A DNA stretch of 64,000 bases from Candidatus Omnitrophota bacterium (lineage in GTDB: Bacteria; Omnitrophota; Gorgyraeia; JABMRG01): the NCBI GenBank assembly GCA_030593065.1, contig JAUVHV010000002.1:33003-97002 (forward strand), given 5' to 3'. Position 1 is the first letter of the stretch. Every line of letters starts with the position of its first letter. A program made the position numbers and the translations under genes. Below, one piece after another: positions 1 to 57,262 of the stretch. The notes beneath the pieces were generated by a model, which had not been told where the DNA came from, did no database searches, and saw nothing but the letters and a program-made list of their open reading frames with translations.

Positions 1-3000
1 GGCGGTGCGATTGCGAATTAGAGGCAGGGGAATCTGGATAATAATCCCCAATTCCTCAATATGCCTGCGTAAAGAAGCAGGAATAAGCTCTAAATATTCT
101 TCTTTAAGCGAACATACCCTTAAACCTGCTTTATCAACTATCTGTAATGGCATATCCCTGGCGCTGATTATTTTAAAGTTACCAAAGTTAGTCGATTTAT
201 TCTCAGTAGGTTTTGTGGCGATAAAATCGGATTGGGCCAATAGTTCTTTCTCTATAAGCAAAGGCTGTTTATTGCCTTCATAATCAAGAAGGTAAATAGT
301 AAAGTTCTCATTTTGGGCAAGGCCAGCAAAGGTCTTCCAACTCCTTTGGGCAAGCATAGCGTCAAGTTCGGGGATAGTATTATCAATCGTCTTAATCCGC
401 CGCACTGTTACGCCTTGTTTTACGCTTTCATCATTAACTTTGCGTATGCCGGTGAGTTTAATCGCCTTTGGCTTGCCTGATGTGTCTTTGATTACAGTAA
501 AACTAAAGATGTAAGCGCGGTCTCGGTTTTTAGTAATAAACTCCAGTCTATCTACCCCCTCAAATATGGTATATTTACCGGTACCAAAAAACCCGGCTAA
601 CTCTATCTGTTCCCCCTTTGCCTTAGTCGATTTAGGAATAAGCAGGGCTACTTCCTTAAGCGCGCCTGTGCCATCATCAGCAGCCTCTTCTACATACTCT
701 TCCTCTCCATACTCATTTTTCTGAAGGTAGAAATCAATTACCAGCTCTGAACTTTCCGCATCGCTTGAGTTCTGGGTAATCTCGCGAGCATAACCACCGG
801 ACTCAGCTTGCACGGTTATATTTTTCAATAACTCGGCCTCTAAGCTATTAGAACGCTTGGGGGGACTATGGATATGCTCAAGAAGATAATCTATATCCAT
901 AACTATATCCTCTTCACCGGCTTTGGGACGCCTCTGCTCTAATTTAATTATCTGAGAAAGTTCAATTCCCCCTTTAGCAAGGGCAAAATCTCTACCAATG
1001 AAAACAAGGCGCCTTTTTTCTTTTATCTGCTCTACCTCATTAGCAAGAAAGATTATAAATGCCCGCGCTTCACCCAGATTATGGGGTTTATCCGGGTGTT
1101 CAATATAGGAAAGAATATCATCGAAATCAAGAACCTTAAATGTCTGGTGCAATCTTTCCAGGAACTTTCTCTTTACCCCATCTTTTGCATCAAGAATTTT
1201 AGAGAGCTGATTTTTTACAACTTGGATATTTTTACCATCGTCCAAGCTTGCGGCACAGGAAAGAAATTGAACAATATCAGTAATCTCAGAGAGTTTAATC
1301 TGATTATAGGTTGCTCCTTTCAGATCCTGGATAAAACGGGCAATAAGAGGAATGGCATCAACCTTTTCCTGAGCATCTATATCCCACCCATGACCTAATA
1401 CCTCAAAAACATTGCTATCAATAACGTCAAATCTTAATTCAGGATTGCTGCTCAGCCAAAATAGTTGGCTAAATAAAATATTATAAAAGTCCTTTTGGAC
1501 TGTATATTCTTCCTGGGTGAGCAGACCTGCTACAGAATTGAGATATTCAGGAAGAACCTTCAGGATCTCGTGCATTCTTTCGCTAAGCATATCAAAGGGC
1601 AAAGGTATGCCTAAATCCAAAGTCTCACCACTTAAAGCGTCTTTATATCTTTTTACAATCTCTTTCTCCTGGTCTTCATACAGTTTAGTAATAAATTGTT
1701 TAATTATGCGTTCAATGTCCCCCTCATATTCTTCAGGAATTAGCTCAAGAAACGGTTCATAAGCAATTTTTGCCTGAGCGATGAATTCATCTCTTCTGGG
1801 CAAAATATTATTTTGCCACAATTTAATTGCCTTTTTTTCATCTTTAGTTTCAATTTCGAAATCCTGCTTAGTTTCGGGCATACCCGAAATCCCTCTCCAT
1901 TCATCATGATAGCTTTGTGCCACAGCTTGAGCAATAGCGGCTAAGGTTTCTGCTTTATGATCTGACGAAGGAATGTTATTTACTACTATAGTGAGGGCTT
2001 GGGTAACCAACTCCTGAGCCTGGGTGATGTTACCGCTTTGTGCCGCAGCCTGAGCAATAGCAGCTAAGGCTTTTGTTTTATGATAAAAGTCAAAAATATC
2101 ATTTTCTGTTATTGTGAGAGCTTGGGTGACCAACTCCTGGGCTTGGGTGATGTTACCGCTTTGTGCTGCAGCCTGAGCAATAGCAGCTAAGGCTTTTGTT
2201 TTATGATAATAAGAGTTAGAAATATCATTTTCTGCTATTGTGAGGGCTTGGGTGACCAACTCCTGAGCTTGGGTGATGTTGCCGCTTTGTGCTAGAGCTT
2301 GAGCAATAGCAGCTAAGGTTTTTGTTTTATAAGGGAGGTCAAGAATATCATTTCTTGCTATGGTGAGGGCTTGGGTAAATAACTTCTGGGCTTGGGTGAT
2401 GTTGCCGCTTTGTGCTGCAGCCTGAGCAATAGCAGCTAAGGTTTCTGCTTTATAAAAGGAACTGGTAATTTCATTTCTTACTATTGTAAGAGCTTGAGTA
2501 ATATCGCCGCTTTGTGCTAGAGCTTGAGCAATAGCAGTTAAGACTTCTGTTTTATAGGAGAAGTCAAGAATATCATTCCTTGCTATGGTAAGAGCTTGGG
2601 CAAATAACTTCTGGGCTTGGGTGATGTTGCCGCTTTGTGCTGCAGCCTGAGCAATAGCAGCTAAGGTTTTTGCTTTATAATAATAAGAGTCAGAAATATC
2701 ATTTTCTGCTATTGTGAGGGCTTGGGTGACCAACTCCTGAGATTGGGTAATATCGCCGCTTTGTGCTAGAGCTTGAGCAATAGCAGCTAAGGCTTCTGCT
2801 TTATAAAAAGGATCACTAATCTCATTCGCGGCAAGTAAAAGTCCGTTAAATATTTCTTCCTGCCTTGTATCAATGGGGCCTTGCGCAGAGACAAAAATCG
2901 GCTCTTCGGGCCTGGCGGGGTCGAGATAGATTACATCCCCGGTTTTGGGGTTGAGAAAGACAAAGTATTTGCCGTCAAAAGAGACAGAGCTATATTCATA

Positions 3001-6000
3001 AGCAACTTTCAGCTTGTCAGAAGCTATGCTACCTTCAAGCCACCAGGTATTCTCTAAAATTACGGATTGATGAGGAAAACAAGCAGTAACCGCACCATTA
3101 AAACAACCTGTTTGATCACCGTCGAGATTGTATTCATAAATTTTCCCTTCAAAGTAAGATATCAACTTGCTCCTCGTGGGTTTATAATTCACAACCTCAC
3201 CTTTAAAAGGAATTTTCTTGCCGGGTTCCATACCAATCGCCACTGGATTATCCGGATCAGAGTTGTCGATGAAAAGATCAAAATGAGGGTGCTTGTATGC
3301 GCCTTTTTGATTTAGTCTCTGGAGCGGATCTACTGAAATGACTCTGTGAAACCATTCACCATCCCTGGCTGCCTTGTATGTCCCATTAATAAAACCCTCT
3401 CTATAATCAAAAGGCCCAAAACTCTTATCATAGATATCACCTTCTTCGGTAAAAAATAATGTTCTATTATTTTCAAATATTACCCAATAAACTGCTTTAC
3501 CGTTTTTCCAGCCTGTGCCTATACTTTGTATCTCCTCCCCTCCAAAATCGGGTAGATAAAGCAGATTCTTTATCTTATGAATATAGATAAATGTATCTCC
3601 AGATGTTGTGCCAACTGCTACTGTATATGTTCCGGTAGAATCAGTATGCAGGTACTTAAGCAGGTACTTAAGTTCGTCTCCAGCACCAACGCACTTTCCT
3701 GTTTCCAAATCAATCAAACTCATCAACGCAGAATCTTTATCCCGCACAAAGGCCACATTAGCAAAAGGATTGATAGCGTATTCCACATTGCCTTTGCCCA
3801 GATTAATACGGCCGATTATTTCTCCACCCTTATCAGGGAAAAACTCTGCAATAAAGGCACCTTTGGAAATTTTTAATTTTGTTTTCGCGGAAGCTACTGC
3901 TTCTACTGGGATTATCTTTATAATCACAAGCTCTTTTTGGCCTGTTTCTTTGTCTTCCAAATAGGTCAAGTACTTGCCATCTTTGCTGAATTGGAGATCA
4001 GAATAAGGGTTTTGTAATGGCTTAACCGTAGGCTGCATAGAAAAACCTGACCCCAAATAATATTTTTGCCCATTCTCTACATCAAAGACTTCTCCATTCA
4101 TTGTGCCGTCTCTCCTTTGCACATAGGCAAAGCGTTTGCCAGATGGAATAATTATATCGCCTTCATCTTTAGAAACATGGAATACTGGTGGAAAAAAGAT
4201 ATCCTTACCTAATTTTTGGATATTACATGAACTCTTTGTTGTAACTTTATAGTATCCTTTTCCTAACAGTTCTATCTGCTCTATAGCTCTATGCCTACTG
4301 GCTATATTTGTCTCCAGGTCAAGCAGGTCTCCATTCTCTAACAATACAGTTTTTTGGTTAGCATCAAGAGGAGGTTTATTAGTTTTTGCGATTGGTGCTT
4401 CAACAGAAACAGGGGGCCTGGCAAGAAACTTATTAATTGCCTCTGAATCAATCTCGCCTTGGCTTTTTATAAGGTCAGCCTGAGAAGCTAATCTCAGGTT
4501 TTCTTTGGGTTTGGTAATCTCATAAGAGGTAACCACCTGTTCAGCGGTAATTATATTGACTATCTGTAAGAGCAAGGCCAATTCTCTCTCTTCATCACCT
4601 GTTAATCCTTTCACTCTTTTAGCTGTTAATTCACTAAGCCTCTTGCTGCCTGATAAGTTACTGGCAATGGCAATAAACCTGTCTGTCCTGATGATGGGCA
4701 ACCGGCCTTCCTGCTGCCAGGTATGCCACTGGCGATGGTATCTTAAGACACCTTTTAGGCTCTCTTCAGTAAATGGAACGAGAACCAGCGGTAAGTGTTT
4801 ATCCCCATCCAAGCTGATACCAGAGACTACAACTCCTCCGATCTCCTTAAGGCTCAATACCCCCTGCCAATCAAACAAGTTCTTATTCACAAACAGAACT
4901 TCTTTGCCTTGCGGAATGGTCAATTTTTTAAATAGTTTATCGTGGGGTAAAATAACAAAGTTCTCTTCTCTTAAGGCACTTATAATTTCCGCTAAAAGTT
5001 TCTGAGTATTCGCACAGATAGCCTTGATAGTGTGAGCATAGTTTTCATTGCCCTGGATTAATTCCTCAAGCCCCACTACAATGGTATTGATATATCTGAT
5101 TTTGTCAACATTGGAGAGGGTGGAATGACTGATGATTTCAATAATAGCTTTCTCTACTGCCAACTGAAAATTGGATTTTTCTCCCGACTTAAGTTCAAGT
5201 GGAATGATGATATTGTCCCGGGATTCAGGCACATCTAAAAGAGAGCCAAACTCAATCATCAGCCCGCCCTCAGTAGTAGCCTCTTTAGCAATATCCTGTG
5301 GAATGTCAACAGCCACAATCACCTCGCTGTTTCTGGAGAAAGAGACTCTATGGGGGAGTGTAGTATCCTGCACCACCTTAATCTTGCTAAGTTCTTTCTG
5401 AGCTGCTTCACCACTTAAAGGCTCTGGATGCTTGGTTCCCTGTTTAGGAACAAACATCCGGGAAAGAACCCCTGCTGCCATACCTCTACCATTATCTATT
5501 ATTTTTACTGTGTGCCCGCGTAATTGAATCTGAATATTACCCGCTCTTTTTTCCGGTGTATAAACCGAGTCTTTAGGAGGAACTATAACCTCTTTCTCTC
5601 CAAAACCATTCACTTTTTGGGGTTCTTTATTCTCTACTTGAGTGGTTATTTCTACAGCAGTAACATAAGGGAAACGCTTGTGAATAGCTTCTGCAATGCC
5701 TTCCTGGGAATTACGGCGTTGCCTACCAAGTTCCTCACCTGTTAATGGTAGCTTATTCTTAGTAGCTATCTTCACCACTGTTCCCTGCTCTACTGTCTGG
5801 CCACAGGCCTTTTGAAATACCTGAAGAGAAATCTTTCTAATCTGGATATAATTCTGCCCTTGTGTATCTTTGAGTATAATAAGCTGATAAGGCAGTCCTT
5901 GCTTTTCCTTTGTAAAAACATCTATCCTGTCTGCGCCCGTAGGCTCTAACCAATCAATGATTTGCTTGACACCTTTGCCAAATTGACCAATCTCAAGTCC

Positions 6001-8139
6001 AAGCGCATCAAGGCCGTTAGAAATAGCTTCTAATATTCCCTGGGCACGGGGATTTTTGTTTTGTCCAATAATCTCAATCCTTAGCCTGGGGTCCTGATAA
6101 GTTGAGTTATTAATAAGGTTGATAATCTCCCTGGTATAACCTTTTTCAGTAAGGCTCTCATAGATCCTCTGATAAGCAGCATCTCTGAAAAGCCCCTGTT
6201 TAACACCCAAAACAGAAAGAATTCTTTGCAGTACTTCCGATGGTAAATTCTGCTCCGCCAGTTTATTCTGCGCCCAGACAAAATGTTCAAGGCTAACTCC
6301 AAAAAAGTTTTGCTTAGAGTCCGAATATTCAAATGCCTGTTGGCTTTTCTTGACTATTTTGGCGTCTTGCGGCTTAAATGGTAACCAGGTCGATTCTAAA
6401 GAATCGCCCTCTTTGGCCCTCTCCTTGCCCGCAGAGGAGGCTTTTCCCTTCTCTGCCATATTCCAAATTTCTTTAAAAGCCTCTTTCGTATATTCTCTTA
6501 TTTCCCGTGGACAAAGATCGCCGTTAACAAGAGGCGCTGAGAGCATATGCTTAAAAGATTCTGTTAATTCCGCAATGTCCGGTAATATGCCTGCCATTCT
6601 GTCTGAGTACAGCTTTTCGTAATTTTCTATGCCAATGTTTGGACATATTACAACGTAGGATATATCTTTCTCTTTTAATATATTTGTTATGCCCTGGGTA
6701 TGAAAGCCGCCTGTTATGAGCATGGCTCTCTCTTTACGGCTGCGGCTCATAGCCTTTAGCGTGTTACCTACTAACGCTATGTCTCTTTTTAAAGCAAGTT
6801 GATAGTATCTTTTGGAATTATCTATCGCCTGTTGTTCTATGCAGGTTGAAGTGACAACATGGTTTAGATTCAGGCCATATTCAGCAAAAGCTGCTTTTAA
6901 AAATTGCTGAATATTTACAATGTTGGATGATTGTAAATTTTTATCTAAGTAATGCAGTTGCCTGGGGGTAAGTTCCAAGCTATATAGGCCTTGTAATATC
7001 TTTACTGACTTACTATACAATACCAGGTTTTTCTGAATGGGCGTTTTAGACAGGGCAAGCATAAGCTCCCCTTCCAGGTCTTCTGCTTCATCAAATACTT
7101 TAATATGGTTTATCTCTTTGGAGAATTTTAGGTAGTCGATGTATATGGTTAAGTGGTTATAGGTGTTTGGTGTTAAAAATTGTTCAAGATAATTATAAAA
7201 GGCTATATCCGAGAGCTTATTGAGTTTGAAGTCGAGGCTATTTTTAAGAAGCTCCTGCAGCTTCTCATTCTCTAGGTTTTCGGAGAGGTGCTTAATCAAC
7301 TCTTCTCTCTGAGCTTGGGCATCTTTAAAATCTACGCTCTTCTCTTTTTCAATAAGCCGGATGAACTCATTGAGGCTCTTATATTTCTCGATATCTACTT
7401 TTGTCTTTTTGGAGTAATATTGCAATGCTTCAAGATATTCCGGAAGTTGGAGCTGCTTTGCGTAATAAAAACCGGCTTTCTTATCTATATCTTTTAACTG
7501 TTTAGAATATACCTTTTTCTTTAAGATATTTATGCTTATTTCAACAGCTTTAAGGAATTTTAAGATTTTGTCTCTATCTAATCTATTCTCTTTGTAGGAT
7601 GCAAGGTGTTCTAAGTAGGCGGCTTTATCTTCCGTACCCTGAGCCTTGAGGGACTTATCCGTATTTGTTATCTTATAAAACTCAGCACCGGTAAAAAGGC
7701 CTTTTTCAACGAAGAGCTTAGCTGTTTTATTCTTTATCTTACCATCCGGGAATTTATTGTAGAACAAGGTATTGAGTTCTTTTGACGCACCCTCTAAACA
7801 CATAAGGTGTGTATTATGCTTTATATTAAACTCATCTATTATCTTCGCTATGTTAAGCTGGGCAACAGGGTCTATATGGCGGTCCTGGATATGTACAACC
7901 AAAAAGTCTCCTTCGCCCTTATAGGTATCTATGACCCTTCCTATCGATTCAGGTATAGTGATAGAGCCGGGATCGCTTACTATGTCAGTTCTTTTTTGCG
8001 TTAAACTATCCTCTACCAGATATCTTTTGGCATGAGGTTGTGATCCAAATAAGGTAGGATAGCAATAACCATAGGTACTGGTCAAAGCTATACTACTGCT
8101 GAGTATTATAGATAATATTCTTTTAATATTTAAACTCAT
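1..8139 (-). CDS. Giant multidomain protein. N-terminal 2713 codons lie in the window; the gene starts at ATG 8139 and runs off the window at position 1 without a stop.
   Basis: I translated the reverse complement block by block in the frame whose codons end at plus-strand coordinates divisible by 3. No stop codon occurs from 8139 down to 1. An in-frame TAG lies immediately upstream at 8140-8142. The N-terminus reads MSLNIKRILSIILSSSIALTSTYGYCYP. The ORF track omits it because it has no in-window stop. Confidence 0.8.
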   Translation of the reverse strand, partial: MSLNIKRILSIILSSSIALTSTYGYCYPTLFGSQPHAKRYLVEDSLTQKRTDIVSDPGSITIPESIGRVIDTYKGEGDFLVVHIQDRHIDPVAQLNIAKIIDEFNIKHNTHLMCLEGASKELNTLFYNKFPDGKIKNKTAKLFVEKGLFTGAEFYKITNTDKSLKAQGTEDKAAYLEHLASYKENRLDRDKILKFLKAVEISINILKKKVYSKQLKDIDKKAGFYYAKQLQLPEYLEALQYYSKKTKVDIEKYKSLNEFIRLIEKEKSVDFKDAQAQREELIKHLSENLENEKLQELLKNSLDFKLNKLSDIAFYNYLEQFLTPNTYNHLTIYIDYLKFSKEINHIKVFDEAEDLEGELMLALSKTPIQKNLVLYSKSVKILQGLYSLELTPRQLHYLDKNLQSSNIVNIQQFLKAAFAEYGLNLNHVVTSTCIEQQAIDNSKRYYQLALKRDIALVGNTLKAMSRSRKERAMLITGGFHTQGITNILKEKDISYVVICPNIGIENYEKLYSDRMAGILPDIAELTESFKHMLSAPLVNGDLCPREIREYTKEAFKEIWNMAEKGKASSAGKERAKEGDSLESTWLPFKPQDAKIVKKSQQAFEYSDSKQNFFGVSLEHFVWAQNKLAEQNLPSEVLQRILSVLGVKQGLFRDAAYQRIYESLTEKGYTREIINLINNSTYQDPRLRIEIIGQNKNPRAQGILEAISNGLDALGLEIGQFGKGVKQIIDWLEPTGADRIDVFTKEKQGLPYQLIILKDTQGQNYIQIRKISLQVFQKACGQTVEQGTVVKIATKNKLPLTGEELGRQRRNSQEGIAEAIHKRFPYVTAVEITTQVENKEPQKVNGFGEKEVIVPPKDSVYTPEKRAGNIQIQLRGHTVKIIDNGRGMAAGVLSRMFVPKQGTKHPEPLSGEAAQKELSKIKVVQDTTLPHRVSFSRNSEVIVAVDIPQDIAKEATTEGGLMIEFGSLLDVPESRDNIIIPLELKSGEKSNFQLAVEKAIIEIISHSTLSNVDKIRYINTIVVGLEELIQGNENYAHTIKAICANTQKLLAEIISALREENFVILPHDKLFKKLTIPQGKEVLFVNKNLFDWQGVLSLKEIGGVVVSGISLDGDKHLPLVLVPFTEESLKGVLRYHRQWHTWQQEGRLPIIRTDRFIAIASNLSGSKRLSELTAKRVKGLTGDEERELALLLQIVNIITAEQVVTSYEITKPKENLRLASQADLIKSQGEIDSEAINKFLARPPVSVEAPIAKTNKPPLDANQKTVLLENGDLLDLETNIASRHRAIEQIELLGKGYYKVTTKSSCNIQKLGKDIFFPPVFHVSKDEGDIIIPSGKRFAYVQRRDGTMNGEVFDVENGQKYYLGSGFSMQPTVKPLQNPYSDLQFSKDGKYLTYLEDKETGQKELVIIKIIPVEAVASAKTKLKISKGAFIAEFFPDKGGEIIGRINLGKGNVEYAINPFANVAFVRDKDSALMSLIDLETGKCVGAGDELKYLLKYLHTDSTGTYTVAVGTTSGDTFIYIHKIKNLLYLPDFGGEEIQSIGTGWKNGKAVYWVIFENNRTLFFTEEGDIYDKSFGPFDYREGFINGTYKAARDGEWFHRVISVDPLQRLNQKGAYKHPHFDLFIDNSDPDNPVAIGMEPGKKIPFKGEVVNYKPTRSKLISYFEGKIYEYNLDGDQTGCFNGAVTACFPHQSVILENTWWLEGSIASDKLKVAYEYSSVSFDGKYFVFLNPKTGDVIYLDPARPEEPIFVSAQGPIDTRQEEIFNGLLLAANEISDPFYKAEALAAIAQALAQSGDITQSQELVTQALTIAENDISDSYYYKAKTLAAIAQAAAQSGNITQAQKLFAQALTIARNDILDFSYKTEVLTAIAQALAQSGDITQALTIVRNEITSSFYKAETLAAIAQAAAQSGNITQAQKLFTQALTIARNDILDLPYKTKTLAAIAQALAQSGNITQAQELVTQALTIAENDISNSYYHKTKALAAIAQAAAQSGNITQAQELVTQALTITENDIFDFYHKTKALAAIAQAAAQSGNITQAQELVTQALTIVVNNIPSSDHKAETLAAIAQAVAQSYHDEWRGISGMPETKQDFEIETKDEKKAIKLWQNNILPRRDEFIAQAKIAYEPFLELIPEEYEGDIERIIKQFITKLYEDQEKEIVKRYKDALSGETLDLGIPLPFDMLSERMHEILKVLPEYLNSVAGLLTQEEYTVQKDFYNILFSQLFWLSSNPELRFDVIDSNVFEVLGHGWDIDAQEKVDAIPLIARFIQDLKGATYNQIKLSEITDIVQFLSCAASLDDGKNIQVVKNQLSKILDAKDGVKRKFLERLHQTFKVLDFDDILSYIEHPDKPHNLGEARAFIIFLANEVEQIKEKRRLVFIGRDFALAKGGIELSQIIKLEQRRPKAGEEDIVMDIDYLLEHIHSPPKRSNSLEAELLKNITVQAESGGYAREITQNSSDAESSELVIDFYLQKNEYGEEEYVEEAADDGTGALKEVALLIPKSTKAKGEQIELAGFFGTGKYTIFEGVDRLEFITKNRDRAYIFSFTVIKDTSGKPKAIKLTGIRKVNDESVKQGVTVRRIKTIDNTIPELDAMLAQRSWKTFAGLAQNENFTIYLLDYEGNKQPLLIEKELLAQSDFIATKPTENKSTNFGNFKIISARDMPLQIVDKAGLRVCSLKEEYLELIPASLRRHIEELGIIIQIPLPLIRNRTA
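560..790 (-). other. HSP90/sacsin/MORC-type HATPase (Bergerat fold) motif set in the C-proximal part of the giant protein
   Basis: N-box REITQNSSDA occupies 757-780. About 34 aa later, G1 box AADDGTGA occupies 661-678. About 28 aa later, G2 box GFFGTGKYTIF occupies 568-594. Order and spacing match HSP90 motifs I, II and III. Confidence 0.55.
1925..2815 (-). repeat. About 7.5 tandem copies of a 120-bp unit encoding 40-aa alpha-helical TPR-like repeats (one copy is 99 bp / 33 aa)
   Basis: The repeat is directly visible as a 120-nt periodicity: ttgtgc(c/t)gcagcctgagcaatagcagctaaggc ... gggcttgggtgatgtt. It translates to YKA(K/E)TLAAIAQA(A/L)AQSG(N/D)ITQAQ(E/K)L(V/F)TQALTIA(E/R)NDI. Confidence 0.9.
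2880..4300 (-). other. Beta-strand-rich region of the giant protein, possibly a beta-propeller
   Basis: Repeated patterns such as KDGKYLTY, GTYTVAVG and DGKYFVFLNPKTGDVIYL are reminiscent of propeller blades. This is inference only. Confidence 0.25.
5480..6050 (-). other. GHKL-superfamily-like motifs in the giant protein
   Basis: ILEAISNGLDAL is N-box-like (E-x-I-x-N-x-x-D-A). VKIIDNGRGMAAGV is G1-box-like (D-N-G-x-G-M). The spacing between them, about 180 aa, is atypical. Confidence 0.3.
6650..7920 (-). other. Region of the giant protein with TraB/GumN/Tiki-like motifs
   Basis: GDFLVVHIQDRH lies near 7890. The downstream motif MLITGGFHTQGITNILKEKDISYVV lies near 6690 and resembles the GxxH ... 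GGxHxxG pattern of the TraB/GumN family. This is a weak, motif-only call. Confidence 0.25.
8073..8118 (-). other. N-terminal hydrophobic segment of the giant protein (signal peptide or membrane anchor)
   Basis: Residues about 8-22 (ILSIILSSSIALTST) follow the positively charged stretch KR. Confidence 0.4.
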
Positions 8140-8344: not shown

Positions 8345-8453
8345 AATATTACTTGTGTCTTCTGCCTTTAGCAGCGCATTGGCTTTTTTTGCCATGAACG
8401 TAAATAGACGGCAAAAATACCTGCGCTGCTAAAGGCAAAGGCATAAGTAATAT
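8345..8453. repeat. Palindromic ~110-bp intergenic element, copy 1 of 3
   Basis: Inverted arms (c)ttatgcctttgcctttagcagcgc / gcgctgctaaaggcaaaggcataag flank a centre that holds an inner hairpin ggctttttttgcc ... ggcaaaaatacc. Near-identical copies lie at 13674-13783 and 57139-57240. Confidence 0.85.
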
Positions 8454-8461
8454 TCCTATCA

Positions 8462-9115
8462 TTAGATAAATCCATGATTAGACAGGAATTCTTTACTTAG
8501 ATTTGTATTAGCAGAATAGCCAGTTGTATTTTTATCCATAAGATTATGAGCGTATTTTGCCAGGATATCTGTCTCGATATTTAACCTGCTGCCCCTATCC
8601 TTGTCTATAAGGGTTGTGGAATGCAATGTATGAGGTATAAGCATAATTGTAAAACTATTATTAGAGACATTATTCACTGTAAGGCTTACCCCATCTACAG
8701 TAACAGAGCCTTTTTCCGCTAAAAAGCGCTCAAAACCTTTAGCAATCTCTATTTTAATCTCTACACAATCTCCTTTAAGTATTTTGGAGAGTATCTTTGC
8801 CGTATAATCTATATGGCCTGTTACGAAATGGCCCCCTAACCTGTCTTCCATTTTTAATGAGCGTTCAACATTCACTTTTTCTCCTGCTGTTAAATCGGCT
8901 AAATTGGCCCTTTTCAAAGTCTCAGGGCTGACATCAAAAGTGAGTATAGCACCATCTATCTTCGTTAATGTCAGACAGCACCCGTTTACACTTATGCTAT
9001 CGCCTTGTTTTGAATGAAGAGAGCATACCTTGCTTTCAATGACTAATTGCGCGATCTTATCTGCGCAAAATAAATTCCTAACAATTCCTACCTCTTCAAT
9101 TATCCCTGTAAACAT
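8462..9115 (-). CDS. ribE: Riboflavin synthase alpha subunit
   Basis: N-terminus MFTGIIEEVGIVRN, with the internal lumazine-binding repeat. Confidence 0.9.
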   Translation of the reverse strand: MFTGIIEEVGIVRNLFCADKIAQLVIESKVCSLHSKQGDSISVNGCCLTLTKIDGAILTFDVSPETLKRANLADLTAGEKVNVERSLKMEDRLGGHFVTGHIDYTAKILSKILKGDCVEIKIEIAKGFERFLAEKGSVTVDGVSLTVNNVSNNSFTIMLIPHTLHSTTLIDKDRGSRLNIETDILAKYAHNLMDKNTTGYSANTNLSKEFLSNHGFI

Positions 9116-10199
9116 CTGTCTCCACCAAAAGATCCTTCCCTATCCTTTTTACCTTAAGATCTGTAAGTTTTACTGCCTGGCTTATTTTTGCCACTCCATC
9201 GCCGCCTATCGAGCAGGGAGCGCCCCTTCCGCCTATTAAGATTGGCGCAATAAAGAGATAAAGTTTATCAATGAATCGTTTTTCAAGCAAAGATGCCGCA
9301 ATTTCACCGCCGCCTTCTACCAGGACACTTCCTATCCCCATTAAAAGCAGCTGCTTCATAAGCGCTTTTAAACCAACCCTGTTTGAGATAGAGCCAACAC
9401 GTATAATACGGGCTCCTTTATCTCTTAGAGCACGCTCCTTAATCCTGGAAGAACGCATTGTTGTTGCTATAATAGTCTTTCCTGGGGATAGGCTGGTAAA
9501 TACCTTAGCAGTAAGAGGGGCCTTAAGCTTTGTATCTACTATTACCTTAAAGGGTTGCCTTTTTGAATTACGAATAGTAAGTGCTGGATCATCACTTATA
9601 AGTGTATTTATACCTATCAGGATAGCATCATGTTTTTTTCTTAAATCCTGAACAAGCTTTCGCGATTCCGGGGAACTTACCCATTTAGAATCACCTTTAT
9701 TTGTAGCGATCTTTCCATCCAGGCTCTGCGCGAGTTTTAAGGTAGTTAACGGCCTTTCTCGTCTCATCCTCCTGAAAAATCCTGTATTTAACGCCTCTGC
9801 CTCTCTCTTTAAAATGCCTGTGCTTACAATTATCCCATGTTGTTTAAGGATTTTCAAACCCCTGCCCCTGTTTAATGGATTAGGATCCTTAGCCGCGCAG
9901 ACAAGCTCTTTTACGCCTGAGCGGATAACCGTATCTACACAAGGTGGGGTTTTCCCATAATAGGCGCAGGGCTCAAGAGTTACATAACAGGTTGCGCCTT
10001 CTGCTTTTTTACCCGCTTTTTTTAAGGCAACTATCTCCGCATGAGGGCCGCCAAATTGCTTGTGATATCCGGAAGCTACTATTTTTTTATTCTTTGTAAT
10101 AACACAGCCTACCAGAGGATTAGGAGTTGTCTTATCCGCGCCTCTCTTTGCTTGCTTAATAGCAAGCCTCATATATTTTTCAGCTGTTTTTAGATCCAT
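9096..10199 (-). CDS. ribD: Bifunctional diaminohydroxyphosphoribosylaminopyrimidine deaminase / 5-amino-6-(5-phosphoribosylamino)uracil reductase
   Basis: Deaminase motifs HAEIVAL and PCxxC (TLEPCAYYGKTPPC) are followed by the C-terminal reductase domain. Confidence 0.9.
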   Translation of the reverse strand: MDLKTAEKYMRLAIKQAKRGADKTTPNPLVGCVITKNKKIVASGYHKQFGGPHAEIVALKKAGKKAEGATCYVTLEPCAYYGKTPPCVDTVIRSGVKELVCAAKDPNPLNRGRGLKILKQHGIIVSTGILKREAEALNTGFFRRMRRERPLTTLKLAQSLDGKIATNKGDSKWVSSPESRKLVQDLRKKHDAILIGINTLISDDPALTIRNSKRQPFKVIVDTKLKAPLTAKVFTSLSPGKTIIATTMRSSRIKERALRDKGARIIRVGSISNRVGLKALMKQLLLMGIGSVLVEGGGEIAASLLEKRFIDKLYLFIAPILIGGRGAPCSIGGDGVAKISQAVKLTDLKVKRIGKDLLVETDVYRDN

Positions 10200-11004
10200 T
10201 TTTTAAGGCCTCGACATAAGAATAAGGAATTGAAGTCTTTCCTATTAAACTAGTGCCTTTGGCATCACCATGGCAATCAGAGCCACCTGTAATTATCAGG
10301 CTGTTCTCAATAGCAAACTTCTCATAGCGCTTTGCCGTTAAACCAACCTGTTCAGTATGAAAAACCTCTATTCCTTCTAATCCTTCTTTTACCAGCCTTG
10401 GCAATATCGAGTCGAGCCTATTGACCACAGGATGGGCTATTACCGGTACACCATTGGCCTTTCTTATAAAATCGATTACCATTTTCGAAGTATACCTAAA
10501 ATTTGATACATAGCAGGATTTTGTATCCCCTATATACTTTTTAAAAGCAACGCGCCAATTAGGAATAAGCCCTTTAGCTTCCATATACTTAGCAATATGA
10601 AGCCTGCTTATAGACACGCCACCTGTAAATTTTATAATGTCTTCAGCATCTATGTTTAAGCCATGGCCATTAAGAGCATCTACCATCTTGTAGAGCCTCT
10701 CTATCCTGTCCTGCCTTATCTTACTTAGAAACCCCAAAAAAACAGGATCCCTGTAATCTATACAGTAACCGAGTATATGCATCTCCTTACCACTCTCCTC
10801 AGCGCTTACTTCAACACCAGGTATAATCTCAACGCTATACCTATTACCCGCGCTCATAGCCTCATCAAGTCCGGATACACTGTCATGGTCTGTAATAGCA
10901 ATACAGCACAGCCCCTCTTTACTCGCAACCCGCACAGCCTCTTCGGGGCTAAAAGAGCCATCCGAATATTTTGTATGTACATGAAGGTCTGCCAGTCTTT
11001 TCAT
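10180..11004 (-). CDS. PHP-domain metal-dependent phosphoesterase (TrpH/YciV-like)
   Basis: N-terminus LHVHTKYSDGSFSPEE ... ITDHD. Confidence 0.8.
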   Translation of the reverse strand: MKRLADLHVHTKYSDGSFSPEEAVRVASKEGLCCIAITDHDSVSGLDEAMSAGNRYSVEIIPGVEVSAEESGKEMHILGYCIDYRDPVFLGFLSKIRQDRIERLYKMVDALNGHGLNIDAEDIIKFTGGVSISRLHIAKYMEAKGLIPNWRVAFKKYIGDTKSCYVSNFRYTSKMVIDFIRKANGVPVIAHPVVNRLDSILPRLVKEGLEGIEVFHTEQVGLTAKRYEKFAIENSLIITGGSDCHGDAKGTSLIGKTSIPYSYVEALKNGSKNS

Positions 11005-13325: not shown

Positions 13326-13388
13326 TCTGTCAAGCGAAAACAAAAAAGTTACCTATAATCTCTCATCCGCTGCCCTCCTCTACGCTGA

Positions 13389-13542
13389 GAGTTTTGGTGC
13401 AGCTTTTGCAGGAACGTGAAATTTTTCCCTGCGAGAAAAATTTCACTCCAAGTTGGCGCTCGCTCTCGCGTAGAACTTAATCAGGGCGAACCATGCCCGC
13501 TCGCACCACCAAGGTCCTGCGTAAGCTGCACCAAAACTCTCT
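13389..13542. repeat. 154-bp element bounded by 19-bp perfect inverted repeats, with a nested inner hairpin
   Basis: Outer arms gagagttttggtgcagctt / aagctgcaccaaaactctc. Inner hairpin gtgaaatttttc ... gaaaaatttcac. The element is intergenic, between the riboswitch and the GGDEF gene. Confidence 0.7.
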
Positions 13543-13673
13543 CTTGAGGGGGCAAGGCTTGTAAGCAAACTCCTCTTGCTGTTTATTAAGAATTGTTCTG
13601 AAAACCAGCTTTTTGAGCAATGAGAACAGAACTTCTTTCTTGCGAGCATTCTCTGGCTTGGGCAAGAAACTAG

Positions 13674-13783
13674 AATATTACTTATGCCTTTGCCTTTAGC
13701 AGCGCATTGGCTTTTTTTGCCCTGAGTGTAAATAGATAGCAAAAATACCTGCGCTGCTAAAGGCAAAGGCATAAGTAATATTC
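13674..13783. repeat. Palindromic ~110-bp element, copy 2 of 3 (33-bp perfect arms)
   Basis: gaatattacttatgcctttgcctttagcagcgc ... gcgctgctaaaggcaaaggcataagtaatattc. Confidence 0.85.
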
Positions 13784-13851
13784 CTATCAGCAAAAGTTGC
13801 TGCGAAACTCTCAACTTAGATGGAAACAGCTTTGATCTTTCTTTTAATTGC

Positions 13852-13879
13852 AGCTTGACAATGGCGAACATCGTTATAT
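13852..13879 (+). promoter_or_regulatory. Putative sigma70-type promoter of the GGDEF gene
   Basis: TTGACA, a 16-17 nt spacer, then TATAAT. The first ATG codons follow immediately at 13883 and 13892. Confidence 0.35.
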
Positions 13880-13882
13880 AAT

Positions 13883-15062
13883 AATGCTTGCTATGAATGA
13901 TAAGGTTAAAAAATTACAAAAAGAGCTGCTGAAAACCAAGGCGGAACTTTGGCTCTTATATGAAATATCAAACGCAATAAGAACAACTTTAAACCTGCCT
14001 GAGGTACTCTACGTAATATTAAGCGCTGTAACATCTCAAGAAGGCCTCGGTTTTAATAGGGCAATGCTTTTTCTTGTAAATAAGACCCGTTCAGCGCTTG
14101 AAGGTGTTATGGCTATAGGGTCTACCAATGCTGAAGAAGCGTATGCCATATGGAAAAAGATTGAGGAAGAAAAATTAAGCCTTGATAAAATAGTGGATAT
14201 GTTTCACAGGATAGATAGCCATGTAATAAAAGCGCCCTTAAATAATATTGTAAAGAAAATAAGGCTGCCGCTGAATGAAACCAGTGGGATACTTGCAATG
14301 TGTACGCTTGAAGGTATGAATTTTGAGATTACATCCAGGCCTGCCAGAAAAAAGATATCAGACCCAACTCTCGATAAGCTTCATGTGGATCTTTTTACAG
14401 CTGTGCCTCTTAAAGGAAAACGTGAAACTTTAGGCGTTCTTCTGGTAGATAATATGATAACACAGAAACCTATTACCAGGAATGATATCCGCATCCTTAC
14501 TATGTTTGCAAACCAGGCAGGCCTTGCGATAGAGAACGCCCATCTTTATGAAACTACAAAATTTCAGGCGCATACCGACTCCTTGACAAGATTATGGAAC
14601 CATGGATATTTTCAAAACAGTTTAACAGAAGCTATAAGAGAAGCCAGATCGCGGAAATCTAGTGTTACGCTTGCAATGATAGACCTGGATAATTTCAAAA
14701 TATATAATGACATTCTTGGCCATCAAAAAGGTGATGTCGCTCTTCGTGAGGTTGCGTCTGTGTTAAAGAAAAGTACTCGCAATCAGGACCTTGTGTGCAG
14801 GTATGGTGGTGAAGAATTTGCAATCATAATGCCTGGCATAGAAAAAGAAAACTCATCTTATACTATTGAGAGGTTAAGACTGGCCATAGAAAAGACTTTT
14901 AAACGTATTGAAAAAAAGAGATCTTTTCCACCTCTTACAATAAGCGCAGGCATCGCGTCTTTTCCAAATGACGCCAAAAAAAAAGAGAGTCTCATCAAAA
15001 AAGCTGATGAGGCTCTCTATACTGCGAAGCATGCCGGAAAAAACAGGGTAAACAGCTGTTAA
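13883..15062 (+). CDS. GAF-domain diguanylate cyclase (GGDEF). The ORF-track start at 13848 probably lies inside the promoter.
   Basis: The C-terminal GGDEF domain carries the RYGGEEF active-site motif. The N-terminal domain is GAF-like. Confidence 0.8.
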
Positions 15063-18000
15063 ACTTTCCCATCCGTAACACGCTCTTTTGATACTTTTGC
15101 TGTAACCGCTCCTGTCACATCCTGATTAAACTTTTTTGTTGCCGTTTCTTCAAACTCTTTCTTTCTGCTGGCTATCTTCTCATCATCCACAAGCTGAACC
15201 GAAACTATCTTAGATATACCGGATTTTTCCATTGTGATGCCATACATCAGGTCACAGACAGAGATAGTTTTCTTATTATGTGTGATAATAATAAACTGCG
15301 TTGTCTTTATAAACTCCTGCAATATTCTGCTGAAACGGTCTATATTAGCTTCATCCAGAGGCGCATCGATCTCGTCTAATATGCAAAATGGGGTTGGCCT
15401 TACCTTGAAAAGCGCAAAAAGGAGTGCCACAGATGTAAGCGCCTTCTCTCCTCCTGATAATAATGAAATGCATTGAAGCTTCTTTCCCGGGGGCCGAACC
15501 GCTATCTCTATACCGCTCTCTAATATATCAGCCTGATCCATAAGGAAAAGTTCTGCCGCGCCACCACCAAATAGAAGCTTAAAATACTCTTTAAAGGCAA
15601 CTTGAATCTGTTCGAATGTTTCGATAAACATTCTCCTCGTAGTACGATTTATTTTGTTTATCGCTTTATGAAGACTTTCTTTCGCGCTCAAAAGATCTTC
15701 CTGTTGGCTGCTCAAAAAATCATACCTCTCTTGCAATTCCTTGTGTTCTTCAATCGCAACAAGGTTTACATGGCCCATCTTATCTATCTTTACCTTTATA
15801 GATCCCACCTCTTGCGCTATTCTTTCCCAGTCTTCGGTTCCTTCAAATACAACCTGTTCTTTATCAAGATCGACCTTGTACGCTAATTCTATTCTCTCTT
15901 TTATACTGTTAGCCTTGTGTGTAAGCTCGCTTATATTTAGATAAAAATTTGATATGTTATTTCTAATCTCATCAAGATCCTTCTGCATATTACGGGCCTT
16001 TTTCTCCATCTCATTAACCTGCGTATACGCCCTGCTTCTATCTCCCAAAAGCGCCGTAAGCTCCTCATTAACAACGGTAAGTTTCTCTCTTAATGCTATA
16101 TTCTCTTCAGTAGCACGTTCAATATCAGTTGTCAAAGAAGAAGATTTGGCATGAGCTTTTTCATGCTGATTCTTTCTCTCTGAAACTGATATATTCTCAT
16201 TATGCAATGACTCCTTAAGCATATTAAGGGATGCGTTTTGTGAATCATAGTTTTCAGCAACAAGCGACATCTGAGTCCGCAATTCTGCGAGAGATACTAT
16301 GGCCTTCTCTTTCTCATCAGCTTGTTGAGCAATTGTTTCCTGATTCTGGCTTACAAAGGCTTCTATCTTGTTCTGTTCTGCCTCAAGGTTTATTAATTCT
16401 GTATTCAATGATTCTTCTCGCTGCTTGAGCGTAGCCTCTTCCGCGGTTGTCTCATCCAATTCAAGTTCAATGAGGGTCAATTCCTCTTGTAGTTTATCTT
16501 TCTGCTCTTTAACTTTTATTTTTTGAGACTCTTTTTCATGAAGTTTTATCTCTTCTTTCTTTGCTGCCTCTTCCTGGCTCGCCACATCCTTCTTCAATTG
16601 CTCAAGCCTAAATGCCGTGCTGGAATGCTCTTGCTCATAACCAGAGATCCGGCTCTTGAGGATATTTACCTCATTCGCAAGCTCATTTATCTTTGCGTCT
16701 CTCCCTATGATACTGGTATATTCATCCGCAAAGTTCGGGCCACCGGAATAAATAATGCCGCCTTTCATGTCACCTTCTTTTGTCACGAATACCATAGAAG
16801 AGTTTACATTTTGTGTATCATCAGGTATATGTTTTACTAAATATGTCTCTTTTAATAAATAATTAAGCGTATCTTTACCTCCATCTCTTGCCCCTATAAG
16901 CTCAGACAACTTTACCGCCTCAGGTACAGGGCAAGAAAAATTATCTTCACGCAAAACACTAGGTATATCTTCAGAAACTATGAACTGTGCCCTGCCCTTT
17001 TTGTTCTCCTTAAGAAAAATCAGTGCTTTCTGACGAGCTGTACTATTCCTTACTATTATGGCCTGGCTTTTTTCACCCAAAACACATTCAAGCGGCCTGA
17101 TAAGGTTCTCCTTTGCTTCTATCATATCTGCTACAATACCTACAAACAGCTCTTTCTGCTGGGGGTCATTTTCTATAAACTCCATGTAGGCCTTTACCCC
17201 CTCAGAAAAACCTTCCTGATTCCGTTTAAGATCTCTTAAAACCTCTAACTTTGAGCTGGATGAAGCGAGCTTCTGCTTCATCTTATCTATAATATCTCTT
17301 TTCTCCTTAAAATTAATACCAAGCTGCGTAAAGGCATTCTTAAGCGAATGTAAAAGCTGTAGAACGTTTTCTAAAACTTTTCTTTGCTCAATAAACGCGG
17401 TCTCCGCAACCTGCAAGCTCGCTTCAACCGCATCCTTATCTTTTATAATCTTATCTTTTTCAATGCTCAGCCTGCGATTACGTGATAAAGCAGTAGCAAC
17501 ACCAGCTGAGGCTTTACTCAATTCATTCCTGGCCTTTGACTGGTTCGAGGCATTCTCCATTACAGTAACCTTACTATCAGATATAGCCTTTTCACACTGT
17601 TTTATAATTTGGGTTATATTATTTAACCCATCTTCTGTTTCAGCTACAAGCGCCTGTTTCTTTTCGCGCTCATCATTTACCAGGTTAAATTCATATTCCA
17701 CGGAAGTTATCTTCTGCCGCATTTCAGAGGTTCTTCTTCCAATCTCCTCTATCTCTCTTGCGAGTGATCCGGAACGTTGTTTCAGCTCTTCTATCCTCTC
17801 AGTATCTACTCTTATACTGTTTTCATTCACACCTATAGCAGCTGAGGCCTGAGATACTCTCTCTCTTGTCTGTGCTATATTCTCATCAAATGAATTTATC
17901 TTTTCGCGATATATGCGCAATTCATCCTGCGCCAGATTAAGCCCTAAGGAGAGGTGCCCTTCTTTCTGTTTAAAAGAGCCTGTACAAAGTTTTTTATCTT

Positions 18001-29209: not shown

Positions 29210-29221
29210 TCATCCTCAATA

Positions 29222-29421
29222 GCCACAGACGTTTTAAAAGTTGTTCGGTCCACTGTCCACAAATTGAGCTTTACATTGTACCCTATAAGGACAGATGGTC
29301 GCTATATATATTCATCTGGATTTAAAACAATGTTGGCTCTTGCTTGAAATCTCCTTTTTGAGACACTGTCGTGCTCGAATTGGGGACAGTGTCCCTATTA
29401 AGAATCAAAACGTCTGTGGCT
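29222..29421. repeat. About 200-bp intergenic element with nested inverted repeats
   Basis: Outer inverted repeat ccacagacgtttt / aaaacgtctgtgg. Inner inverted repeat tccactgtcc / ggacagtgtcc. Confidence 0.6.
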
Positions 29422-53755: not shown

Positions 53756-53829
53756 GAAACTGTTTCCAAACTGTGAGGGACAGTGGGCATGTATGCGCCC
53801 ACTGTCCCTCACAGTTTGGAAACAGTTTC
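53756..53829. terminator. Near-perfect 74-bp palindrome; a probable bidirectional terminator or insulator between the nuclease gene and the dcw promoter region
   Basis: gaaactgtttccaaactgtgagggacagtgggc atgtatgc gcccactgtccctcacagtttggaaacagtttc. Confidence 0.6.
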
Positions 53830-56831: not shown

Positions 56832-56915
56832 AATGTAAAAATTATACCATAAGAATATAAAAATACAAGTAAAAACAGGTCCCGCTTATCAAGAACGGTT
56901 CTTGATAAGCGGTAA

Positions 56916-56992
56916 TGGTAGCGGCGAGTGGAATTGAACCACTGACAACACGGGTATGAGCCGTGTGCTCTAACCATCTGAGCTACGCCGCC
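56916..56992 (-). tRNA. tRNA with anticodon CAU (elongator Met, or Ile2 if lysidine-modified). The 3' CCA is encoded.
   Basis: I folded it manually. The acceptor stem is GGCGGCG / CGCCGCU. The D stem is GCUC / GAGC. The anticodon stem is CACGG / CCGUG with loop CUCAUAC. The T stem is AGUGG / CCACU with loop UUCAAUU. It lacks the initiator-type anticodon stem GGG/CCC. Confidence 0.85.
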
Positions 56993-57080
56993 ACAGAACT
57001 ACACATTCACACTTGTGCCCCAAAGCCCTGTATGCAAAGGGCGGAGGGGTACGCCGCCACAAAACTACACATTCACACTT
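56986..57080. repeat. Two direct copies of a 29-bp segment, tRNA 5' end plus 22 nt of upstream flank
   Basis: cgccgccacagaactacacattcacactt occupies 56986-57014. cgccgccacaaaactacacattcacactt occupies 57052-57080. Confidence 0.8.
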
Positions 57081-57138
57081 ACAATTTTATTATGAGATTA
57101 TAGCAAAAAATGTTACTCATTGCAACGTAATTCATATA

Positions 57139-57240
57139 ATCTCTTATGCCTTTGCCTTTAGCAGCGCTTTGGCTTTTTTTGCCATAAATGTAAATAGACG
57201 GCAAAAATACCTGCGCTGCGAAGGCAAAGGCATAAGAGAT
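57139..57240. repeat. Palindromic ~110-bp element, copy 3 of 3
   Basis: atctcttatgcctttgcctttagcagcgc ... gcgctgcgaaggcaaaggcataagagat. Confidence 0.85.
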
Positions 57241-57262
57241 AAGAGATTATAGGTAGTGTTAA

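Follow-up and report, generated by a model that had tools for sequence, protein, structure and literature searches.

The intergenic regions of the 64-kb stretch of DNA analysed here (the window) contain three copies of a palindrome of roughly 110 bp. Their presence raises the question of whether these hairpins terminate transcription, specify small RNAs or belong to a family of repeats that spreads on its own account. A sequence-only reading had placed the copies at 8345-8453, 13674-13783 and 57139-57240 and proposed a MITE/REP-like family whose members might double as terminators or small-RNA genes. We use H as the working name of this family of ~100-115-bp palindromic repeats.

Three hairpins in a compact housekeeping region

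The three copies could be located, folded and modelled as described. Designated c1 (8345-8455; inverted repeat I3), c2 (13673-13783; I2) and c3 (element core 57139-57240; I14), they all lie in the same (+) orientation and score 119, 121 and 135 bits, respectively, against a covariance model built from 24 family members. Scanning the 64-kb window with this model, without filters, detected no further copy, the next match having an E value of 0.59. A 20-mer from the arm core matches the window five times, against 0.02 matches expected.

The most perfect palindrome of the three is c2, whose 34-nt arms are 100% complementary. On the plus strand, its left outer arm GAATATTACTTATGCCTTTGCCTTTAGCAGCGCA (13673-13706) is followed by the left half of the inner stem with its T-run, GGCTTTTTTTGCC (13709-13721), the terminal loop (13722-13738), the right half of the inner stem, GCAAAAATACC (13739-13749), and the right outer arm (13750-13783). 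Both halves of the inner stem are core blocks conserved across the family; the loop is its most variable part, AATAGA alone being semi-conserved. The arms of c1 (8345-8379 and 8422-8455) differ from each other by three substitutions and one indel, the left arm being the degenerate one. Those of c3 pair perfectly over 20 nt and, past a 1-nt bulge, over 7 further pairs; this palindrome reaches 57135-57251 if an internal 7-nt duplication, AAGAGAT (57241-57247), is allowed. Thus, the perfect arms of 26-33 bp initially ascribed to every copy are a property of c2 alone (at 34 nt), whereas the conserved centre with its inner stem, GGCTTTTTTTGCC / GGCAAAAATACC, is indeed found in all three.

The fold of each copy is a single long, imperfect hairpin in which an outer stem and two small internal loops lead to an A/T-rich inner stem of 8 bp, closed by GCC/GGC, and a loop of 16-17 nt. 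Folding energies ranged from -57 to -70 kcal/mol for RNA of either strand (z -8.8 to -12.7) and from -36 to -45 kcal/mol for DNA (z -8.5 to -12.6).

The surrounding DNA has 40% GC and is compact, with nearly all genes on the minus strand and devoted to housekeeping functions: a rib operon with an FMN riboswitch, SMC, ETF/acyl-CoA dehydrogenase, fatty-acid synthesis and the dcw cluster. It also includes a giant ORF (1-8139), RNase P RNA, a tRNA and an RND efflux operon, and encodes no transposase. All three copies of H are intergenic. The first lies between the ribE stop codon (8462-8464), abutted by its plus-strand tail CTATCA (8456-8461), and the promoter-like site of the giant gene. Together with the last C of the arm, this tail makes up a 7-nt sequence, CCTATCA, common to c1 and c2 and resembling the start of a flank module, A' (CCTATGA), in metagenome relatives. 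The third copy ends 22 nt from the stop codon of the AcrB-type pump gene (57263-57265) and is flanked on the other side by the -35 motif of a tRNA promoter (57125-57097). Thus c1 and c3 do sit at the 3' ends of minus-strand units. In contrast, c2 is not at any 3' end: it occupies the spacer of two divergent near-consensus promoters, one for the FMN-riboswitch/rib operon (13333-13306, minus strand) and one for a GGDEF gene (13855-13882, plus strand; 12/12 matches to the sigma-70 consensus). Since the latter falls no more than 35 nt into the longest GGDEF ORF (13848-15062), the true start codon of this gene must be further downstream. A 142-aa ORF spanning c2 (13443-13871, minus strand) had no Pfam match and is probably spurious rather than a gene.

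Some neighbouring features deserve mention in their own right. The giant ORF (minus strand) exceeds 2713 aa and is open-ended, running past the left end of the window; its orthologues include one with a Metallophos match (L041) and one with a weak HD match (L045). A 66-nt duplication (56984-57080), comprising the tRNA leader and the first 9 nt of the tRNA, appears as 31-nt repeats (56984-57014 and 57050-57080) that are 97% identical; it is also found in L001 and is absent from L040, L044 and L026. Directly after the tRNA lies a 14-bp hairpin, CCGCTTATCAAGAACCGTTCTTGATAAGCGG (56882-56912, minus strand), the only terminator-like site of the region, absent from L040 and L044. Its inner palindrome, CAAGAACCGTTCTTG, recurs in L001 and L026, where it overlaps the -35 motif (TTGACA) of the tRNA promoter.

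A dispersed family whose arms evolve in concert

The source genome contains a fourth copy, c4 (L043:7695-7819), about 4 kb past the right-hand limit of the window. It is flanked by the ApbE and H+-PPase genes and oriented like c1-c3. As expected where a repeat lies, a short-read contig from this strain breaks off within c1. With the arm 20-mer as query, two MAGs of uncultured Planctomycetia (L001; L002 and L006) proved to contain true copies; three of the six matches in the genome collection (L003-L005) were discarded as chance matches in GC-rich genomes. A gapped pattern search of metagenomes returned 32 loci, and nhmmer gave 47 matches that represent 29 distinct sites across metagenome contigs and MAGs of relatives; a single 28-kb contig has as many as five copies. 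The fourth copy and the ~29 sites in related genomes thus bore out the suggestion of a MITE/REP-like family reaching beyond the window. All 29 sites are intergenic. BLAST searches of plasmids and phages found no match, and the single match in a scan of viral contigs fell inside a coding region and was dismissed as fortuitous. As far as sampled, H is restricted to an uncultured low-GC (~40%) Planctomycetota clade. No such repeat family was found described in the literature on Planctomycetes and anammox genomes, and none seems to have been described for this uncultured clade.

Members of the family are 100-115 bp long and non-coding, with arms that are perfect over 20-34 nt and total about 45 bp. 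The inner stem with its unpaired bulges is the most conserved part, the core being conserved far more than the loop. The left conserved block reads GCC-TTTAGCAGCGC-(A/T)TTGG(A/C)TTTTTTTGCC and the right one GGCAAAAATACC-N-GCGCTGCG(A/C)AGGC. In most copies these blocks form asymmetric internal loops, with TTTA opposite G(A/C)A, which are closed to perfect pairing in c1 and c2. GCCTTTAGCAGCG and GCAAAAATAC were required by the pattern used on the metagenomes, which accounts for part of their apparent conservation; this bias shows in c4, where TTTAGC is missing. The MAG copies, recovered by the arm 20-mer only, have the same conserved centre; that of c4 (GCCTTCGCAGCGC...GCGCAGTGAAGGC) indicates that more divergent members exist and are under-sampled.

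The outer stem (CTTATG-xxxx-GCC) differs between copies, often on both sides together, as in the variants CCTTT/AAAGG, CATCT/AGATG and CCTTCT/AGAAGG. Compensated changes affect both arms of the L027 copy (CCCC/GGGG and TTACAC/GTGTAA) and of c4 (TCATG/CATGA and GCTTTT/AAAAGC; outer stem TCATGCTTTT/AAAAGCATGA). Outside CTTATG, the palindrome extends with sequences specific to a copy or lineage: GAATATTA, (TATA)ATCT, TTTAAGCAATCT, ATAATATCG or CCTCG. When arms were compared with each other, the mean score was 12.1 for arms of the same copy versus 9.3 for arms of different copies, and only 5 of 5000 permutations reached the observed score (p~0.001). The two arms of one copy thus co-vary and evolve in concert. 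With a further copy in the genome and co-varying arms, both outcomes that would have refuted the sequence-only reading have failed to appear. Many copies are chimeric, combining for instance a left arm of the CATC type with a right arm of the GAAGG type, which suggests recombination between H variants. In the family alignment, the predicted pairs comprise 17 G-U cells and 16 A-C cells. Since the two are balanced, neither strand acts as a selected RNA strand; arm symmetry is either a property of the DNA or one to which both transcripts contribute equally.

Two unusual forms were encountered. In one (L030:680-735), a deletion between the two GCGC blocks has removed the entire centre, leaving a short H (GTACTTATGCATCTGCCTTTAGCAGCGC|TGCGCAGGCAGATGCATAAGTA) that remains embedded in the C...A' frame described below. 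The other concerns a further repeat (CCACTTTGTTGCTCATTAATA plus ACCATGCCATTCGCAACAAAAAGGTTCTGC) present at L027:1296-1582, L001:~6600-6700 and L026:~2200-2500; in L027 this repeat sits inside an H copy and is accompanied by a 44-nt duplication of the left part of H and its flank.

Gain, loss and company of the repeat

Comparison with relatives in perfect synteny with the window, whose proteins have about 84-97% amino-acid identity to those of the window (L040/L041 and L044/L045), showed c1 and c3 to be missing from the orthologous spacers of L040, L041 and L044. The spacer between pump gene and promoter measures 16-18 nt in relatives without c3, versus 136 nt in the window, and the spacer between ribE and the giant gene is ~165 nt shorter in L041, which has no c1. 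The relatives' contigs end at the c2 site, so that the evidence of absence covers c1 and c3. At the c1 site, the L045 spacer (L045:5036-5980) contains an unrelated ~1-kb insert that encodes a DUF6036/DUF2204/AbiEii-like nucleotidyltransferase and has two small ORFs as well, which makes this spacer an insertion hot spot. In L001/L024, L026 and L035 (~77-95% protein identity), H lies downstream rather than upstream of the same tRNA and in the opposite orientation; the copy is intact in L001 and lacks its right half in L026 and L035, due to a deletion between AAAATACC direct repeats. Finally, strains with flanks that are 98.8% identical differ by a 244-nt insertion containing H (L017 versus L011/L028). 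Absence from orthologous spacers, this filled/empty strain pair and the half-deleted orthologue together show that the family is gained, lost or decayed between relatives, and is dynamic and dispensable.

No consistent direct repeat was found at c1-c4 or at the 13 non-mosaic copies. The junctions of the 244-nt insertion show only a 4-nt TTTA repeat and a likeness of the unit's pyrimidine-rich flank to the target. Among the relatives of ~84-97% identity, none provided a clean empty site for c1 or c3 precise enough to define junctions, being too diverged. Microhomology between new sites and the ends of H consists of AGGCATAA at the empty c3 site and of purine-rich AAGG tracts at others. A search of related sequence totalling about 430 kb yielded neither an isolated arm nor a longer element with H termini.

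Relative to the coding (G-rich) strand, H is oriented one way at 15 sites and the other way at 14; over these 29 sites there is no bias with respect to coding strand or GC skew. H is thus a multi-copy, always intergenic element inserted in either orientation. Within a contig, orientation is always concordant: 4/4 in the window plus L043, 5/5 in Ga0207996_1000680 and 2/2 in three others. In one metagenome lineage, where H occupies spacers of a type II secretion/pilus cluster, it is part of a larger unit that reads, in gene direction, purine-rich tract, module B or C, H, module A' and purine-rich tract. Modules B and A' each carry the motif TAAATAGGGACAGCTA in direct orientation. This frame is polar with respect to the genes in 12 of 12 cases, while H inside it is forward in six and reversed in seven (one truncated copy and one short form included). 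Such BIME-like mosaicism suggests either in-place inversion of the core through recombination between the arms or the existence of recombinant sub-families.

Spacers of this clade abound in degenerate purine-rich tracts on the coding strand (AAGGTGAAGGTAGAGGCAAAGG and GAGGTATAAAGAGGTATAA; L028:8590-8900 and 10112-10400, L040:13172-13200), which flank the repeat units and resemble the outer arms of H (AAAGGCAAAGGCATAAGAG).

At four loci, c2 among them, H adjoins members of another structured family, I5. This repeat of ~155 nt with a multi-stem fold occupies 13380-13548 in the window and recurs at L015:9103-9257, L002:7047-7173, L033:3436-3587 and L039:10661-10778. Compensatory changes affect 19 of 45 predicted pairs on the window's minus strand versus 12 of 40 on the plus strand, in an alignment of five sequences only; the unpaired blocks GCGAGCGGGCATGGTT and GAGAGCGAG are conserved. 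I5 had no match in Rfam, a short-read contig of the source strain ends within it, and it may represent either a structured RNA that has escaped recognition or a further structured mobile element. A third family, I1, is an imperfect palindrome of ~200 nt (29221-29421) in the convergent spacer after a histidine kinase gene, with 59-nt arms that are 73% complementary and contain GGGGACAGTGTCCC. In L040, a relative of I1 (4439-4682) lies at a different locus, exactly the one that holds c4 in the source genome; I1 is thus a further palindromic family that can move and that competes with H for these spacers. Lastly, a hairpin with perfect 33-nt arms and an 8-nt loop (53756-53829), containing GAGGGACAGTGGGC, lies directly after an SNase-domain gene and upstream of mraZ. 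It is conserved in L040, where it holds the syntenic position (16514-16617); L001, L014 and L029 have weaker relatives.

What kind of element H is

Several classes of bacterial repeat resemble H in part. Correia elements (CREE/NEMIS) of Neisseria are, like H, non-coding, intergenic and multi-copy sequences of ~100-155 bp with long inverted arms around a conserved core, whose presence varies between strains (PMC2649163). The same paper describes them as hairpins co-transcribed with neighbouring genes and bound and cleaved by RNase III, with promoters and an IHF site. Unlike them, H shows no sequence similarity, TA target duplication or IHF consensus, consists almost wholly of a hairpin conserved most in its inner stem rather than at its termini, and belongs to a different host phylum. 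ERIC/IRU sequences and the 100-170-bp enterobacterial RU-1/2/3 are imperfect palindromes (~127 bp) of transcribed intergenic regions which, like H, occur in both orientations and patchily among relatives with no known dedicated transposase (PMC2229807, PMC2759123); H differs by its unrelated sequence, its clade, its lineage-specific palindromic extensions and the mosaic frame of one lineage. With MITEs, H has in common a size below ~300 bp, the lack of coding capacity, terminal inverted repeats and dispersed copies that are present or absent at given sites, whereas target-site duplications are lacking and no parent IS or transposase was found in the window and about 430 kb of related loci. The attC sites (for example Vibrio VCRs) are similar in being 60-140 bp long, imperfectly palindromic and conserved at unpaired bases, in lying at gene 3' ends and in sometimes sharing orientation when several lie in a row. 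This assignment was rejected, as H ends in ACTTATG...CATAAGT rather than in RYYYAAC...GTTRRRY boxes, and its neighbours are housekeeping operons (rib, RND pump, T2SS) rather than cassettes, with no integrase seen. Rickettsia palindromic elements (RPE) were likewise set aside, being frequently inserted in frame within ORFs and having a CGTC tag; H is intergenic at 29 of 29 sites and no CGTC tag was seen.

The proposals that H doubles as a terminator or small-RNA gene did not hold up. Intrinsic terminators require a GC-rich hairpin followed by a U-tract. No terminator-like site overlaps c1, c2 or c3, the U-tract is lacking at every copy of the window, orientation is about 50/50 and c2 lies in a divergent promoter spacer. 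An Rfam search of both strands with gathering and E-value thresholds produced only sub-threshold matches to eukaryotic miRNA-precursor models. An independent small-RNA gene in several copies would account for the stable structure, and c1 and c3 contain a promoter-like match (TTGCCA-18-AAAAAT), a weak one with 9 of 12 positions. Set against this are the absence of a terminator and of an Rfam family, a symmetric structure with no strand signature (17 versus 16 cells) and presence or absence that differs among relatives. Moreover, a small ORF inside H (MPLPLAAHWLFLP) was rejected as neither its frame nor its ATG is conserved among copies. All this makes a small-RNA gene highly improbable. A broader possibility is that H is selected by the host as a structural RNA or DNA element, namely a terminator, an mRNA 3'-end stabiliser or a processing site regulating its neighbours at operon ends and in intercistronic spacers. 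This would fit the position of c1, c3 and c4, which begin 1-22 nt past stop codons and right before the next promoter, the high stability of the RNA hairpin from both strands, the conservation of the core far above the loop, and the gene-polar frame (12/12) in the type II secretion/pilus cluster. Yet c1-c3 have no U-tract, c2 and four other copies occupy divergent spacers, close relatives do without H at the same operon ends, an orthologous copy has decayed by deletion (L026/L035), and both the two orientations and the G-U and A-C pairs are equally common. We regard such a role as unlikely for H itself, although the polarity of the frame hints at a host-related role for the latter.

The likeness to REPINs and REP-BIMEs needs separate consideration. 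They too have two inverted conserved blocks with a variable spacer and compensatory changes, cluster with or insert beside other repeats and form motif mosaics (PMC3116915, PMC3733652). H could accordingly be mobile as a single-stranded DNA hairpin, recognised through its conserved asymmetric inner stem and bulges by a structure-specific recombinase, HUH/Y1 (RAYT-type) or other, whose single-copy gene would lie elsewhere in the genome. The paired blocks, variable spacer and compensatory stem changes (PMC3116915), the landing of new copies beside other repeats, the lack of target-site duplication, the conservation of unpaired core residues and the concordant orientation within each contig all agree with this account, and 7 of the 13 non-mosaic copies have a GTAG no more than 35 nt to their right. 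This GTAG, however, is on the 3' side at variable distance and is not the 5' tag by which REPs are defined (PMC3733652); H has neither a 5' GTAG nor a CGTC tag. Furthermore, single arms form no REP-like palindrome (half-elements versus shuffles, z -0.6 to +0.75) and are far longer than a REP of 20-40 bp, the conserved blocks are inner and the co-varying part outer, there is no overall orientation bias versus coding strand or GC skew, and no Y1 transposase gene was seen in the window, nor any RAYT gene in the 64 kb of the window and a further 10 kb of source-genome sequence. Mobilisation of this type therefore appears quite doubtful.

In our best reading, H is a previously undescribed family of the MITE/ERIC/REPIN-like class of small palindromic intergenic repeats. 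We think it probable, if by no means certain, that it is a non-autonomous, non-coding repeat acting at the DNA level, and that it is neutral or selfish. Against this stand the lack of target-site duplications at the window copies (the TTTA repeat being the sole clean case), the absence of a transposase in the window and of a longer parent element in about 430 kb, and the conservation of the inner stem in place of the termini typical of classical MITEs. In addition, random transposition does not predict that copies on a contig share orientation. The standard MITE model leaves three points unexplained: the flip within a polar frame, the site-specific extensions of the palindrome and the missing target duplications. 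Another formulation, which we rate as rather improbable, is that H, rather than being a transposase-driven MITE, is a hairpin module relying on DNA secondary structure for its own propagation and remodelling. The asymmetric core found about 50/50 within frames polar in 12/12 cases, the symmetry kept by the arms, the microhomology of new sites with the ends of H, and the arms of c4, which include 8 nt that are ordinary flank in a relative without H, speak in favour of this formulation.

Under the preferred reading of H as a neutral or selfish repeat, its spread would take place at the DNA level. Copies might be moved in trans, by a transposase encoded outside the window, or alternatively by recombination or template switching via the flanking purine-rich AAGG-type tracts and microhomologies. 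Correction templated by the hairpin or cruciform may maintain the symmetry of the arms. Read-through from a neighbouring operon would, in either orientation, produce an RNA hairpin of ~45 bp, which by analogy with Correia and ERIC sequences could be a determinant of processing or stability, for example as an RNase III substrate or as a block to 3' exonucleases. Any such effect on neighbouring genes would presumably be a side effect rather than the reason for the existence of H.

Should H remodel itself, it would be spread by template switching, recombination or an unknown structure-specific enzyme, and the clade as a whole would possess interchangeable structured intergenic modules (H, the I5 and I1 families and the M' motif) occupying the same spacers. 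H is in itself an ordinary kind of genomic feature. Nevertheless, assembly breaks and mis-called ORFs, such as the one at 13443-13871, have a major, under-annotated cause in small palindromic repeats, which also produce expression differences between strains. The model of the H family is useful for annotation and strain typing, and the family provides a test case for the spread of hairpin repeats without target duplications.
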